Below, piece by piece: positions 244-6,117 of a stretch of 6,117 nt of DNA. How positions within the stretch are numbered: the stretch's first letter is position 1; each line of letters starts with the position of its first letter. A program made the position numbers and the translations under genes. The stretch lies in the IMG/VR virus record IMGVR_UViG_2700989486_000022, one strand, 5' to 3'. This DNA comes from a virus (Duplodnaviria > Heunggongvirae > Uroviricota > Caudoviricetes). The notes below the pieces were generated by a model that saw only the letters and a list, made by a program, of their open reading frames with translations, was not told the DNA's origin and searched no databases.

Positions 244-474
244 TTAATGGAGTTTGTTTTGCTGCTGGACGAGATCCTGAAGAGACAGGAGGTCTTCCGC
301 CAGATAGCTGAATACAGCGGCGCAGTAGTCGGCTGAAATAGTGCTGTTGAGTCTGTGCAATGTGTTGGATTGCATGATAAAGGCGATGTGTGCAGCGCGG
401 GTGAGTCTGCGATCGATTTCAGTCTGGATGTGACGACGTGCAGCGTATGCGCGCTGTTGTTTGCGGTTTGCCAT
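244..474 (-). CDS. hypothetical small basic protein (76 aa)
   Basis: ORF-track ORF; ATG at 474-472 with AGAGG about 7 nt upstream; good codon usage (CGC/CGT Arg); basic N-terminus (MANRKQQRAYAARRH); lies downstream of a - strand terminator so appears to be its own unit together with the gene at 1-171. Confidence 0.55.
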   Translation of the reverse strand: MANRKQQRAYAARRHIQTEIDRRLTRAAHIAFIMQSNTLHRLNSTISADYCAAVFSYLAEDLLSLQDLVQQQNKLH

Positions 475-484
475 GGTGTGGCCT

Positions 485-703
485 CTTTGGTTGTAAGTTT
501 TGAAAACTCACCATCCAGAGGTGGAAAACTCGGGGTGGTGAGACGTACAGGGTTTCCACAACCGGCAACCAAAGAACCCGGCCCGACCGAAGTCGGCCCC
601 ATACGCCCCACCATAATTCGTGTGCGAAAAAGACGTGGCGATACGGTACGCACAAAAAAACCGCTGGCGCGGTTGTGCGCTTTGGTTGTCAGCGGGGTGG
701 AAA
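485..703. repeat. Three copies of a bipartite motif CTTTGGTTG-(spacer)-GTGGAAA in a non-coding region: direct at 485-527 (27-nt spacer containing the palindrome AGTTTT-G-AAAACT at 496-508), inverted at 552-574 (6-nt spacer), direct at 680-703 (8-nt spacer)
   Basis: Read directly from the sequence: ctttggttg at 485-493 and 680-688, with its reverse complement caaccaaag at 566-574; gtggaaa at 521-527 and 697-703, with reverse complement gtttccac at 552-559. No convincing ORF on either strand in 475-794. Confidence 0.5.
652..676 (-). terminator. Candidate rho-independent terminator for leftward (- strand) transcription
   Basis: On the - strand: AACCGC-GCCA-GCGGTT hairpin (+ coords 659-674) immediately followed by a run of 7 T (+ strand A-run 654-660); located about 120 bp downstream of the stop of the 183-aa gene. 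Confidence 0.5.
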
Positions 704-794
704 TCCCGGCACCCGTTTTATGAGGTGCAGCGGAAATGTAACCTGACTGATTGCGGCATGGCAAGCGGTTTTTTTGTGTGTGCATAATGCTCAT

Positions 795-3290: not shown

Positions 3291-3641
3291 TTATAAATCA
3301 GCCTGTTTAATAAAACTTTGCCCGCGAAGCAGACGATCAACCGTGCGAAGTGCTTCGTATAATGTGAAATCCTGCCCGAATTGATTGTCGCCGCAGCTCA
3401 ATGCAAAAATGCGGTTTCCGGTAAACGGATTGCGTGGGCATTTGTGGACCACGATCCCGGCTTTCTCAATCAGCCAGGCATGCTCGCCGATTTGTTTTAC
3501 TGGGTAGCCATCCGGCGTTGCGTGTGTTTCGCTCAGGCTGTAGCGAGAGCTGCTACGTGATGCGCTGGTAGCGAAACGGTTAGCATGACGTTCCGCCCCG
3601 TTGCGGAATCGCTGCTGTGAAGAATTGCGCCGTTCCTTCAT
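3291..3641 (-). CDS. hypothetical protein (116 aa) with Arg/Ser-rich basic N-terminus
   Basis: ORF-track ORF; ATG at 3641 with GGAG about 12 nt upstream; 37 nt downstream of the cox-like stop; N-terminal 35 residues are low-complexity basic (RRNSSQQRFRNGAERHANRFATSASRSSSRYS). Confidence 0.6.
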   Translation of the reverse strand: MKERRNSSQQRFRNGAERHANRFATSASRSSSRYSLSETHATPDGYPVKQIGEHAWLIEKAGIVVHKCPRNPFTGNRIFALSCGDNQFGQDFTLYEALRTVDRLLRGQSFIKQADL

Positions 3642-3678
3642 ATCAAAATACTCCGCCTAAAATGAATTATGGTTTGAG

Positions 3679-4104
3679 TTATGCTGCTTTACCGCTGATA
3701 TTTCTGTTTCGTCTGCCACTTGTTGGCTTAAACAAAAACAGACGGTTTTCCCAGTCGTGCCATTCCTGAGGTGCGTTTTCGATGAGGCGATCGCATGCTT
3801 CATCCCACGCTTTTCTGTTGATGTAGAGTTCAGCGTTTCCGCCAGGTTTAAGAGGGTCCGCCATATACACCGCAGGTAGCTTTCCTGCTTTGGCCATGCT
3901 TACGATGGCATCAACGGTCTTTCCGATATACATCGCAAATCCTTCTTTTGACAGGAGATGCGAGGGATTTTCTGAAAGTCGAATTTCTTCACGTTCACGT
4001 GCTTTGCGTCCTGTTTTTTGATGCTCACCTTCTGGCATTTCTGACAGGTGATCGCATCGTGTTCCGCAAAGTGACTCAGGCGCGTTTTGAGTGCTTTCTT
4101 GCAT
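3679..4104 (-). CDS. cox: Cox-like excisionase / early-operon regulator with an N-terminal extension (141 aa)
   Basis: First gene of the leftward operon, divergent from the C-type repressor as in P2. The C-terminal 85 residues (FAMYIGKTVDAIVSMAKAGKLPAVYMADP...WHDW) resemble my recollection of P2 Cox (FAKLIGK...GKLPVIDMTDP...DGW). ATG at 4104 has a strong GGAGG 7 nt upstream. An alternative internal start at 3933 (AAGGA upstream) would give 84 aa. Confidence 0.7.
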   Translation of the reverse strand: MQESTQNAPESLCGTRCDHLSEMPEGEHQKTGRKAREREEIRLSENPSHLLSKEGFAMYIGKTVDAIVSMAKAGKLPAVYMADPLKPGGNAELYINRKAWDEACDRLIENAPQEWHDWENRLFLFKPTSGRRNRNISGKAA

Positions 4105-4219
4105 CTGATATCCTCCGCTATTGGTGCTCTCTTCTAACTAGCACCATTTAGAACTAGTTAGCGCAATTCGTTGTGTGTTAATTGATATATAAACTAAGTG
4201 AGTTAACTTACTATGTCAA
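4105..4219. promoter_or_regulatory. Lysogeny-switch control region between cox-like and C genes: candidate overlapping divergent promoters and an operator-like inverted repeat
   Basis: Seen in sequence: 8-bp perfect inverted repeat CTAACTAG (4134-4141) / CTAGTTAG (4154-4161) with 12-bp spacer; + strand extended -10-like TGATATATA (4183-4191) upstream of the C start; - strand TTGACA (4219-4214) spaced 17 bp from TAGTTT (4196-4191). Promoter assignment is inference. Confidence 0.45.
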
Positions 4220-4512
4220 CTACCGTAGCTATGAAAATTCGCATCATGCGGAAGTCAGAAATGCTTACACAAGAAAAAATGGCAGAGATTACTGGGCTTA
4301 CTCTTGCTGCATTAAGGCAATATGAGCAAGGACGAAATGAACCCAACCTTGAGTCAACAAAAAAGCTTCTGAAAGCCCCCATGTTCCGTAAGTACCGCGA
4401 CTGGTTTTTGTTTGATGAAGTTGAACCCAAGGCCGGGCAGGTTGTACCGGCTCTCGCACACATTGGGCAAGGCGAAGTGGAATCATCCCGCTCCGGCAAG
4501 AAAACTGGTTAA
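4213..4512 (+). CDS. P2 C-type immunity repressor (99 aa)
   Basis: ORF-track ORF; same length as P2 C and aligns with it along its length as I recall it (MS..KI.LMRKSE.L...A..TG......YE.GR..P ... P.F.KY..WF ... GQ..PALAH.GQ.E..S.SG.KTG); directly upstream of and co-oriented with the integrase. Confidence 0.85.
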   Translation: MSTTVAMKIRIMRKSEMLTQEKMAEITGLTLAALRQYEQGRNEPNLESTKKLLKAPMFRKYRDWFLFDEVEPKAGQVVPALAHIGQGEVESSRSGKKTG

Positions 4513-4578
4513 CGGTTCACCAGGCATTTATTTCCCAGAGCTGTGATCAAGATGATGTTTTCATTGGAGGGCTTCCTT

Positions 4579-5574
4579 ATGTCGATTAAGAAGCTCGCTA
4601 ATGGCAAATTTTGTGTGGACGTGCGGCCTGCTGGATCAGAAGGAAAGAGATTCAGGCGGCGATTTGATACTCGTGGTGAGGCTGTTTTGTATGAGCGTCA
4701 TGTATTGCAGCATTACCACGACAAAGACTGGGTTGATAAGCCAACAGAACGGCGGTCGCTGAGGGAGCTACTGGATTGTTGGTGGTTGTATCACGGTAAA
4801 AATCATCCTTACGGTGCGATGGAGCGAGTGCGTATTGCTGCGGTCATTAGTGATCTTGAAAGTATTAATGTTACACGCAGTGATCAACTTACTCGTAAAA
4901 ACATAATTAATTATCGGTTATTGTTGCTTAACCGCGGAATAAAACAATCCACGGTTAATCGTTATTGCGCAATGATGAGTGGTTTTTTCACAAAACTAAT
5001 TGACGCAGAGGAATATTCTGGGGCTAATCCGTTTCATGATGTGAAAAAACTTAATATCAAACAGCCTGAAATGGCTTATTTGTATCATGAAGATATTCCA
5101 CGATTACTGGAGTTGTTATCTGGTGATGAATTAAAAGCCGTCTTGTTGTGTCTGGCAACAGGTGGAAGATGGAGTGAAGTTGCAAATATCAAGGGGGAGC
5201 ATGTTATTAGCGGCAAAGTCATTTTTATGGAAACAAAAAATGGGAAGCGTCGCGTTATACCTATATCGTCAGAACTGGAGTGCATGATTAAGACGAAGGC
5301 TACTGGTCGTTTAATTTATCCGAGTTATGCCGCTGTCAGAACGGCTATCAGAAAGGTGAGACCCGATCTTCCTGAAGGGCAGTCGATACATGTTTTACGG
5401 CATACCTTTGCCACTCACTTCATGATTAATGGCGGGAATATCATCACTTTGCAGAGAATACTTGGGCATAGCACTATTCAGCAGACGATGACTTATGCCC
5501 ATTTTGCACCAGATTATCTGCAGGATGCTGTGCGCTTTAATCCTGTGGCTGAGTTGTCCAGATATTGCCCATAA
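4579..5574 (+). CDS. int: P2-family tyrosine integrase (331 aa from ATG 4579; the ORF track begins at an upstream GTG 4543)
   Basis: N-terminus MSIKKLANGKF..VDVRP matches P2 Int MAIKKLDDGRYEVDIRP; catalytic-region motifs HVLRHTFATHFMINGGNIITLQRILGH and YAHFAP are present; GGAGG 8 nt upstream of ATG 4579. Confidence 0.9.
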   Translation: MSIKKLANGKFCVDVRPAGSEGKRFRRRFDTRGEAVLYERHVLQHYHDKDWVDKPTERRSLRELLDCWWLYHGKNHPYGAMERVRIAAVISDLESINVTRSDQLTRKNIINYRLLLLNRGIKQSTVNRYCAMMSGFFTKLIDAEEYSGANPFHDVKKLNIKQPEMAYLYHEDIPRLLELLSGDELKAVLLCLATGGRWSEVANIKGEHVISGKVIFMETKNGKRRVIPISSELECMIKTKATGRLIYPSYAAVRTAIRKVRPDLPEGQSIHVLRHTFATHFMINGGNIITLQRILGHSTIQQTMTYAHFAPDYLQDAVRFNPVAELSRYCP

Positions 5575-5700
5575 AATAGGACTAAATAAGCCCATTTAAG
5601 ACTATGTGTATTAATGTAACTAATTGATATATCAAAGGGAGGCCAGTGTGCTCTGCCTCCTTCATGTCACCTTCGGGTGGCGTTGTTTTATGCGATGTAT
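5575..5700. other. Candidate attachment-site / element-chromosome junction region downstream of int
   Basis: Non-coding; AATAAGCCCATTTAAG (about 5585-5600) resembles the P2 att core as I recall it (..AATAAGCCCGTGTAAGG..); hairpins GGAGGC/GCCTCC (5638-5643/5655-5660) and CACC-TTCG-GGTG (5668-5679) followed by a T-rich tract. The exact core and junction cannot be fixed without the other end of the element. Confidence 0.35.
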
Positions 5701-5865
5701 CTCGCGATTTTTTTTTGTAACTTTTCCATCTTTTGCTTTTCTCTCCGAGCCGCTTTCCATATCTGCAATCGCATAAAAAACTCTGCTGGCGTTCACAAAT
5801 GTGCAGGGGTAAAACGTTTCCTGTAGCACCGTGAGTTATACTTTGTATAACTTAAGGAGGTGCAG

Positions 5866-6117
5866 ATGCGTATTACCATAAAAAGATGGGGGAACAGTGC
5901 AGGTATGGTCATTCCCAATATCGTAATGAAAGAACTTAACTTACAGCCGGGGCAGAGCGTGGAAGCGCAGGTGAGCAACAACCAACTGATTCTGACACCC
6001 ATCTCCAGGCGCTACTCGCTTGATGAACTGCTGGCACAGTGTGACATGAACGCCGCGGAACTTAGCGAGCAGGATGTCTGGGGTAAATCCACCCCTGCGG
6101 GTGACGAAATATGGTAA
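5866..6117 (+). CDS. chpS: ChpS (ChpBI) antitoxin of the ChpB-ChpS toxin-antitoxin pair, MazE/AbrB-type (83 aa)
   Basis: Protein MRITIKRWGNSAGMVIPNIVMKELNLQPGQ... matches E. coli ChpS as I recall it; AAGGAGG 5 nt upstream of ATG 5866 (the ORF track begins at GTG 5860); stop TAA at 6115-6117. Confidence 0.9.
   Translation: MRITIKRWGNSAGMVIPNIVMKELNLQPGQSVEAQVSNNQLILTPISRRYSLDELLAQCDMNAAELSEQDVWGKSTPAGDEIW
6111..6117 (+). CDS. chpB: First codons of chpB toxin gene (ATG GTA A.., M-V-K), overlapping the chpS stop; truncated by the window edge
   Basis: ATGGTAA at 6111-6117 gives the ATGnTAA overlap typical of coupled antitoxin-toxin pairs; identification relies on established knowledge that chpB follows chpS, since only 7 nt are visible. 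Confidence 0.35.

Follow-up and report, generated by a model that had tools for sequence, protein, structure and literature searches.

The long Cox protein of a P88-like prophage and its predicted disordered, charged N-terminal tail

Where does translation of this prophage Cox protein begin, and what kind of sequence precedes its DNA-binding domain? The window that we analyzed, a 6,117-nucleotide stretch of a caudoviricete virus record (IMGVR_UViG_2700989486_000022), carries on its minus strand an open reading frame at 3679–4104 that encodes 141 amino acids plus a stop, with ATG as its first codon and an N-terminus that reads MQESTQNAPESLCGTRCDHLSEMPEGEHQKTGRKAREREEIRL. The initial annotation saw in it a Cox-like protein with an unusually long N-terminus whose cysteines and histidines might form a small metal-binding or regulatory appendage, and it set against this the option that translation starts internally at 3933. 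We consider it very likely that this frame is cox from a P88-like prophage (Xuanwuvirus, Peduoviridae), that its product starts at 4104 and combines a Cox winged helix-turn-helix (wHTH) domain with a disordered, two-part tail, and that the Cys and His residues in this tail are passengers.

The identity of the gene is supported by several labels. The product matches the Pfam family Phage_Cox (PF10743) with 97.1 bits (gathering score 27.5 bits) over residues 40–120 (profile positions 1–86/87), and it matches PHROG 1831, a 121-position profile separate from the classical Cox family PHROG 272, with E = 2.9e-53 over residues 21–134; none of the NCBIfam models matches it. RefSeq holds a protein of equal length, WP_001158283.1, labelled "Cox family DNA-binding protein", and, residue for residue, the product equals gp03 of Escherichia phage P88 (YP_009113046.1; 100% identity). 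The gene is present in 40 of 5,426 complete E. coli genomes. P88 itself emerged when E. coli K88 was induced with mitomycin C (PMC5285337) and is therefore viable; the paper that describes it (PMC5285337) does not discuss cox, but it does establish scarless mutagenesis for this phage. The 141-amino acid Cox is thus an entity already known, and only the descriptive account of its tail is new.

Gene order agrees with this identity. The window has the layout int-C-cox, with cox as the first gene of the early operon, opposite a P2-type C immunity repressor (4213–4512, plus strand, in a 99-amino acid reading; Pfam HTH_3 over residues 9–55) that RefSeq gives in a shorter form starting at 4261; P2-like C proteins are ~100 amino acids long (PMC1904263). 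A tyrosine integrase gene lies 3′ of C (4543–5574, plus strand; Pfam Int_N and Phage_integrase, 'phage integrase' in RefSeq), and genes for DUF4761 and DUF4754 proteins lie 3′ of cox. All four of these neighbors, the integrase, the C repressor and the DUF4761 and DUF4754 proteins, are shared with P88, and further along the early operon the match between this prophage and P88 becomes partial. The locus also resembles that of P2 Cox, which likewise lies opposite a P2-type C, adjoins int and has phased direct repeats in its switch region.

The folded part of the protein can be placed with some precision, although every structural statement made here is a prediction from an AlphaFold model built on a 33-sequence alignment. 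Codons 42–121 (3742–3981, minus strand) encode the Cox wHTH domain, as judged from AlphaFold, Foldseek, phmmer and a dN/dS of 0.01–0.02. Its predicted elements run in the order beta1-alpha1-alpha2-beta2-beta3-alpha3-alpha4 (strands at 50–52, 78–82 and 91–96; helices at 53–60, 64–72, 97–110 and 113–121), with pLDDT of 77–95 across residue blocks 51–120. The top Foldseek match for this core is P2 Cox (PDB 4lhf; TM 0.75, 31% identity), and phmmer aligns residues 53–118 with residues 14–81 of 4lhf (E = 3.6e-6). The predicted fold, in which two C-terminal helices come after a winged HTH, is the one seen in 4lhf. Codons 122–141 (3682–3741, minus strand) encode a basic, variable C-terminal tail, LFLFKPTSGRRNRNISGKAA, delimited by pLDDT (<50 at residues 133–141), by our alignment and by its dN/dS of 0.15–0.27.

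Within the Cox family, the 141-amino acid form departs from P2 Cox (91 amino acids) in several respects despite the shared Pfam family and predicted wHTH/alpha3/alpha4 fold. Relative to P2 Cox it has ~39–41 added N-terminal residues, disordered and acidic then basic, and ~15 added basic C-terminal residues, and identity is low outside the core. P2 Cox relies on two C-terminal tryptophans, W81 and W84, to drive filament formation (PMC3936717). W118 of the long form aligns with W81, and neither W115 nor W118 varies within the subfamily, but the position of W84 is taken by R121; the long form has PxEWHxW where P2 Cox has PKEIRDGWLMW, leaving W84 without a Trp counterpart. In size, too, the protein exceeds the ~80–91 amino acids of classical Cox proteins; at 141 amino acids, with homologues of 117–178, it therefore represents a long subgroup (PHROG 1831, 'group 2') rather than something outside the Cox family. 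Nilsson and Haggard-Ljungquist (2011) described, in the part of their paper accessible to us, a Cox 'group 2' of winged HTH proteins whose size exceeds that of the P2/WPhi group, with which they have only six residues in common (PMC3448106), and we infer from that part that the 141-amino acid lineage belongs there. Our homologues include a prophage protein of Pectobacterium atrosepticum SCRI1043 (P0093). Neither the accessible part of PMC3448106 nor PHROG 1831 says what kind of sequence the extra residues form.

How long is the extension? The initial annotation had the Cox-like region begin around residue 56, which would leave ~55 residues ahead of it. That estimate needs revision: the Pfam match begins at residue 40 and short Cox relatives begin opposite residues 39–44 in the alignment, and the extension is therefore ~39–41 amino acids long. 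On its own, the 39-amino acid extension matches no PHROG family.

The next question is whether these residues are translated at all. ATG 4104 is preceded by a Shine-Dalgarno (SD) sequence, GGAGG (4112–4116, minus strand), at a spacer of 7 nucleotides, so the strong ribosome-binding signal proposed from the first reading of the 141-codon minus-strand frame is indeed there. Upstream of this ATG the frame stays open for just 11 codons, which contain no ATG, GTG or TTG. We compared 18 non-redundant loci that span more than 10 enterobacterial genera, with E. coli, E. albertii, Salmonella-type genomes, Erwinia, Yersinia, Pectobacterium, Rahnella, Serratia, Scandinavium and Pseudescherichia among the sources, together with isolated peduoviruses, and in 18 of 18 the context of the long start, GGAG(G/A)ATA(G/T)CA(A/G)-ATG/GTG, is kept; in these loci a stop lies a few codons 5′ of the long start, and the coding sequence just 3′ of it is unalignable. 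Across 118 homologues, the conserved SKEGFA motif is preceded by a stretch of 11–85 residues (median 44) that is in frame in every case. A single open stretch of ~50 codons is, on its own, weak evidence. The recurrence of the start context together with an open frame across unalignable linkers, as read from these sequences, is not a chance pattern. Loss of the frame among homologues had been named beforehand as the observation that would speak against a genuine extension, and both the 118 homologues and the 18 loci keep it.

Substitution patterns point in the same direction. Between E. coli lineages that are ~80% identical in DNA, dN/dS is 0.24–0.30 for codons 1–39 and ~0.23–0.28 for codons 9–31, and the excess of synonymous change appears in the annotated frame only (pS/pN 2.5–2.7, binomial p = 0.005–0.013); the two alternative frames give pS/pN of ~0.9–1.2 and have stops in at least one compared sequence. 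The value for the extension, ~0.26, denotes weak constraint and is based on 12–14 synonymous and 17–18 non-synonymous substitutions. Constraint tightens toward the domain, with dN/dS of 0.04 in codons 32–49 and 0.01–0.02 in the core. Codons 1–8 show zero synonymous changes, and conservation at the N-terminus may for this reason be partly at the mRNA or DNA level. Initiation at 4104, with the N-terminal extension translated, is well supported by these comparisons.

The competing view, in which the true product begins internally at M58 (3933) or at M23 (4038) and the upstream frame is an annotation artefact, appears very improbable to us. ATG 3933 (3931–3933, minus strand) is codon 58, as first noted, and an SD-like AAGGA lies 6 nucleotides ahead of it; M23, for its part, is used as the start in some database entries of 119 amino acids (P0010, P0013). 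However, the AAGGA is accounted for by the codons of the conserved K53-E54-G55, and the M58 position is held by Leu in 82 of the 118 homologues, by Gln in 6 and by Met in the remaining 30, so that a methionine is replaced in 88 of them; at the M23 position, close relatives have Ile or Ala. M58 also lies inside the predicted helix alpha1, and a start there would therefore yield an 84-amino acid product without beta1, without the greater part of alpha1 and short of 18 positions at the N-terminal end of the PF10743 model. The suspicion that a start at 3933 would cut into the N-terminal part of the Cox fold is thus borne out by the AlphaFold model, in which beta1 spans 50–52 and alpha1 53–60. Frame-specific purifying selection 5′ of M58, with the dN/dS of 0.04 in codons 32–49, and an SD and start at 4104 that are kept across genera likewise speak against an internal origin. 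We rejected both M58 and M23 as starts of the main product, neither being conserved.

What, then, does the extension contain? C13, C17, H19 and H28 are all present in the window, as the initial annotation had it, and they recur in relatives with 93% identity or more, one of them a locus with 95% DNA identity (L019), which is what a small Cys/His module on Cox, binding metal or sensing redox state, would have in its favor. Such a module would call for four conserved ligands and a compact fold, and neither was found. Among the 118 homologues, extensions with at least four Cys and His residues occur only in a set of E. coli relatives with 93–99% identity to the protein of the window (P0001–P0007) and in one fragment, and any Cys at all occurs in 15 of 118 extensions. 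The E. coli lineage at 80% DNA identity (83–87% in protein) already carries A13 and Q19, and the homologues from Salmonella and from the other genera (Yersinia, Erwinia, Serratia and Pectobacterium) have none of the four residues. The structure prediction that had been proposed as a check for a metal site gives no compact fold, with pLDDT of 29–36 over residues 1–33 and no secondary structure around C13–H28, and the extension alone has no PHROG match. To our knowledge, the spacing CxxxCxH...H is not that of a classical zinc motif, which also counts against the idea. A metal-binding or redox module is therefore extremely unlikely; the best explanation of the sequences and the model is that these Cys and His residues are lineage-specific passengers and not metal ligands.

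A two-part organization emerges instead. The distal tail, codons 1–29 (4018–4104, minus strand), is acidic (net −5), variable and predicted to be disordered, as its pLDDT, indels and dN/dS indicate, and it holds all four of the non-conserved Cys and His residues. It is followed by a basic, charged patch, codons 30–41 (3982–4017, minus strand), KTGRKAREREEI, with five basic and three acidic residues, which abuts the Cox domain and has a consensus, RKxPEREE(I/V)RL, that is kept in E. coli and Salmonella homologues. In the AlphaFold model, residues 1–33 have pLDDT of 29–36, below 50 throughout, and no secondary structure. In the pooled homologues, Glu accounts for 18% of extension residues, Ala for 13%, Thr for 10%, Lys for 9% and Gln for 7%, and aromatics for ~0.3%. 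The distal part has a median net charge of −5, and the ~14 residues that lead into the domain have one of +3. In Salmonella, in-frame insertions lengthen the tail by as many as ~45 acidic, T/A-rich residues, and three distant proteins of unrelated sequence (P0131, 180 amino acids; P0132, 161; P0142, 182) share the layout of an acidic tail leading into a K/R patch and then beta1. Two further relatives, P0126 (112 amino acids) and P0127 (100 amino acids), have no tail, and the tail is thus dispensable for the basic Cox fold. Being polar and charged, rich in indels, low in pLDDT and evolving at a dN/dS of ~0.26 versus 0.01 in the core, the extension is best described as an intrinsically disordered, two-part charged tail, as far as modeling can indicate. 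The regulatory half of the original suggestion, that of an appendage that modulates Cox, is possible for a charged disordered tail of this kind and not for a folded Cys/His module.

We infer that the tail tunes DNA binding or filament assembly electrostatically. By homology with P2 Cox, the domain (residues ~42–121) would oligomerize on direct repeats that recur every 10 bp within the Pe/Pc switch, the oligomerized protein would shut off the C-repressor promoter Pc and Cox bound to attP would direct the adjacent integrase toward excision. The basic patch at 30–41 might then serve as an added DNA-contacting arm beside beta1 and the wing, and the acidic part at 1–29 as an electrostatic brake or solubilizing bristle that limits non-specific DNA binding or filament growth, both proposals that we make with low confidence. 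Taken together, the tail could be a built-in regulator of the Cox filament, whose acidic part mimics or competes with DNA or caps growth while the basic patch contacts DNA; we put this forward tentatively, as a possibility that is itself somewhat doubtful. If it is true, tail length and charge would set the thresholds for lysis versus lysogeny and for excision, a layer of control absent in P2 and 186 and one that evolves fast through indels.

That an N-terminal element can tune how a wHTH directionality factor oligomerizes has a precedent in RdfS, the excisionase of ICEMlSymR7A (PDB 8dgl), whose N-terminal addition modulates oligomerization and is needed in vivo (PMC11963761). The fold match of 8dgl to the Cox model is weak (Foldseek rank 32), and the two extensions differ: that of RdfS is a short, ordered alpha-helix (residues 3–12) packed into a neighboring protomer, whereas that of the 141-amino acid Cox is long, charged and predicted to be disordered, and the sequences are unrelated. 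A full-text literature search for disordered or acidic N-terminal tails in excisionases returned nothing relevant, the searchable literature holds no account of what the extra residues of long Cox proteins are or do and a 2026 survey of P2-like viruses leaves Cox unmentioned.

The same data can be read as those of a tail that is translated but neutral, a former 5′ leader captured when the start migrated upstream, in which frameshifts would be eliminated merely because they kill Cox and any conservation would stem from signals in the DNA or RNA, for instance the ribosome-binding region or Pc elements. The extreme spread in length (11–85 amino acids) over unalignable linkers and the existence of relatives of short form are in keeping with such an origin, and the lack of synonymous change in codons 1–8 and the conserved SD spacer suggest constraint at the nucleotide level. 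A neutral tail should nevertheless evolve at a dN/dS near 1 and not at the ~0.26 seen here in the coding frame only, and it would leave unexplained the steady acidic, aromatic-free bias followed by a conserved basic patch, as well as the layout shared with distant relatives of unrelated sequence. We regard neutrality as unlikely.

The first seven residues raise another option. They are conserved inside sublineages, as MQENAQN (n = 38), MQESTQN (n = 12) or MQEDTQN (n = 10), and a short cap ahead of a variable linker and a folded domain is the typical layout of a short linear motif, so that the MQExxQN cap could be a tethered motif or degron that recruits a partner (integrase, RNA polymerase or a satellite-phage factor) or a protease (Lon/ClpXP) and in this way times Cox. 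This cap, however, is conserved within sublineages only, others having MxxEAKT (Yersinia, Serratia, Pectobacterium and Rahnella) or MxxxSEI, and its conservation may be explained by initiation-region constraints, namely the needs of an A-rich initiation region. A motif or degron is, in our estimate, a distinctly unlikely account of the tail.

The leader between cox and C offers candidates for the sites on which a tailed Cox protein would act. Three direct repeats with 10-bp phasing, CTAACTAG, CTAAATGG and CTAGTTAG (4134–4161, minus strand), are candidate Cox-binding boxes in the presumed Pc region and form the sole cluster of this motif in the window. Across the 18 non-redundant loci, self-identity of the leader at a lag of 10 is 0.41 versus 0.25 for shuffled sequence (z = 11.8), with a second signal at a lag of 20 (z = 5.3). 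Repeats phased at 10 bp agree with known Apl and Cox sites, as given in the accessible part of PMC7498355, and are a signature of directionality-factor and Cox/Apl arrays (PMC3936717 and that same part of PMC7498355). The sequences thus contain a candidate cox-box array in the Pe/Pc region with repeats about one helical turn apart. In the att arm inside the window (5575–5860), the only box matches carry one mismatch and are at chance level; the other arm lies outside the window. We also considered the leader as a hairpin or palindromic operator (GGTGCT...AGCACC, 4146–4122; CTAACTAG...CTAGTTAG) and dropped this reading because the consistent signal in the cross-genus comparison was the array of 10-bp phased direct repeats. 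One locus, L025, has a compensating variant in the hairpin candidate.

Farther upstream, a candidate early promoter Pe (4191–4219, minus strand) consists of TTGACA at 4219–4214, a spacing of 17 nucleotides and TAGTTT at 4196–4191, with a predicted transcription start at ~4184, ~80 nucleotides 5′ of the cox ATG. A scan of 3600–4600 for strict consensus sigma-70 promoters returned no promoter, and the assignment of Pe accordingly relies on position and conservation: TTGACA occurs at a matching distance (−114/−115) in the heteroimmune variants L020, L022 and L025. Candidate C-repressor half-sites, AGTTAAC at 4208–4202 and AATTAAC at 4183–4177 (together 4177–4208, minus strand), flank the −10 element of Pe, and the heteroimmune variants have other repeats at the matching place, ACATATG twice, 21 nucleotides apart, in L020 and ATAATTTTT twice, 19 nucleotides apart, in L025. 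C proteins of the P2 type occupy a pair of direct repeats within the early promoter region (PMC1904263), and the variant-specific direct repeats around Pe show the arrangement expected of candidate P2-type C operators. Since the candidate Pe and the C half-sites lie 5′ of the long start, this start would fall inside the transcript. The Pc promoter found no convincing placement in the cox leader. We speculate that a conserved TTGCTA on the strand opposite the SD spacer is its −35 element; the window carries CTGATA where other loci have TTGCTA.

The practical consequence is that the database start of the 141-amino acid Cox is right, the internal start is wrong and the Cys and His residues are noise. 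More broadly, a subgroup of P2-family Cox proteins bears a fast-evolving, charged, disordered tail. Cox proteins govern the lysis/lysogeny switch and prophage excision, and P2 Cox also activates P4 satellites. Because Cox sets the switch and excision, and in P2 the activation of P4 as well, the tail could offer a way to tune these decisions, and P88 is a tractable, inducible phage that carries such a tailed Cox.

The Cox protein (3679-4104(-)) is extended at its C-terminus as well: P2 Cox ends sooner, whereas the Cox encoded here adds a basic, variable tail, KPTSGRRNRNISGKAA (3682-3741(-)), for which dN/dS is 0.15-0.27. With this basic extension, the two predicted disordered ends of the protein are opposite in charge.

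At the other end of the gene, two stretches beside the Shine-Dalgarno sequence are kept across genera (window 4105-4116 and the matching stretch of every locus): its spacer, ATAGCAA, and, 3-4 nt to its 5' side, a CCAA motif. This conservation exceeds the requirements of ribosome binding. The complementary strand of this spacer region reads CAT-TTGCTA in most loci and CTGATA instead in the window, and the opposite-strand TTGCTA may serve as a -35 element for Pc, the presumed C-repressor promoter. In phage pro483 (NC_028943, 1586-1957), the annotated Cox (MEDSKV..., 123 aa) has as its start an ATG with which the conserved Shine-Dalgarno sequence itself overlaps, and a GTG 5 codons 3' of this ATG has the conserved Shine-Dalgarno and spacer context; this GTG (118 aa) is the likelier start. 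The 'ribosomal protein S15P/S13E' note in the same record is spurious.

The cox leader also contains 10-bp-phased direct repeats (4134-4161(-); loose consensus CTAAnTnG), whose phasing is kept in 18 non-redundant loci (lag-10 z = 11.8, lag-20 z = 5.3), making them candidate Cox-binding boxes that would span the presumed Pc region. DNA homology between the window and L020, a variant locus from E. coli UPEC132 with an identical Cox protein and a different C repressor, ends at ~4161, with the repeat array on one side and the region of the candidate early promoter Pe and operator on the other. The Pe -10 element is flanked by a variant-specific direct-repeat pair in each of the window, L020 and a further variant, L025 (region ~4161-4215). 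Compared as sequences, the window and L020/L025 represent heteroimmune module swapping.

In RefSeq, the C repressor begins at 4261 and is 83 aa long, and an alternative reading (4213-4512(+)) gives 99 aa. Since the Pfam HTH_3 match to this longer form starts at its residue 9 and ~100 aa is the usual size of P2-type C proteins (PMC1904263), the 4261 start probably cuts into helix 1.

After int lies a GC-rich stem-loop (GGGAGGC...GCCTCC, ~5638-5661). The integrase end also adjoins an ORF (5860-6117(+)) recognised as a ChpS/MazE-like antitoxin by its likeness to E. coli ChpS; the prophage junction is therefore placed within 5575-5860. This prophage adjoins ppa rather than that ORF in strain 160-11H1.

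At the opposite end of the window, a 76-aa ORF (244-474(-); phrog_3688) has directly upstream, on the same strand, a C4 antisense RNA (Rfam RF01695, 80.5 bits; 531-618(-)) and an Hfq-binding isrK RNA (RF01394, 64.3 bits; 654-728(-)), and the homologous stretch of Escherichia phage P88 includes a CDS annotated 'derepression protein'. This arrangement resembles an antirepressor module under antisense control of the P1/P7 kind, set within a P2-family prophage, which, if true, might be a reason why P88 was recoverable upon mitomycin C treatment.
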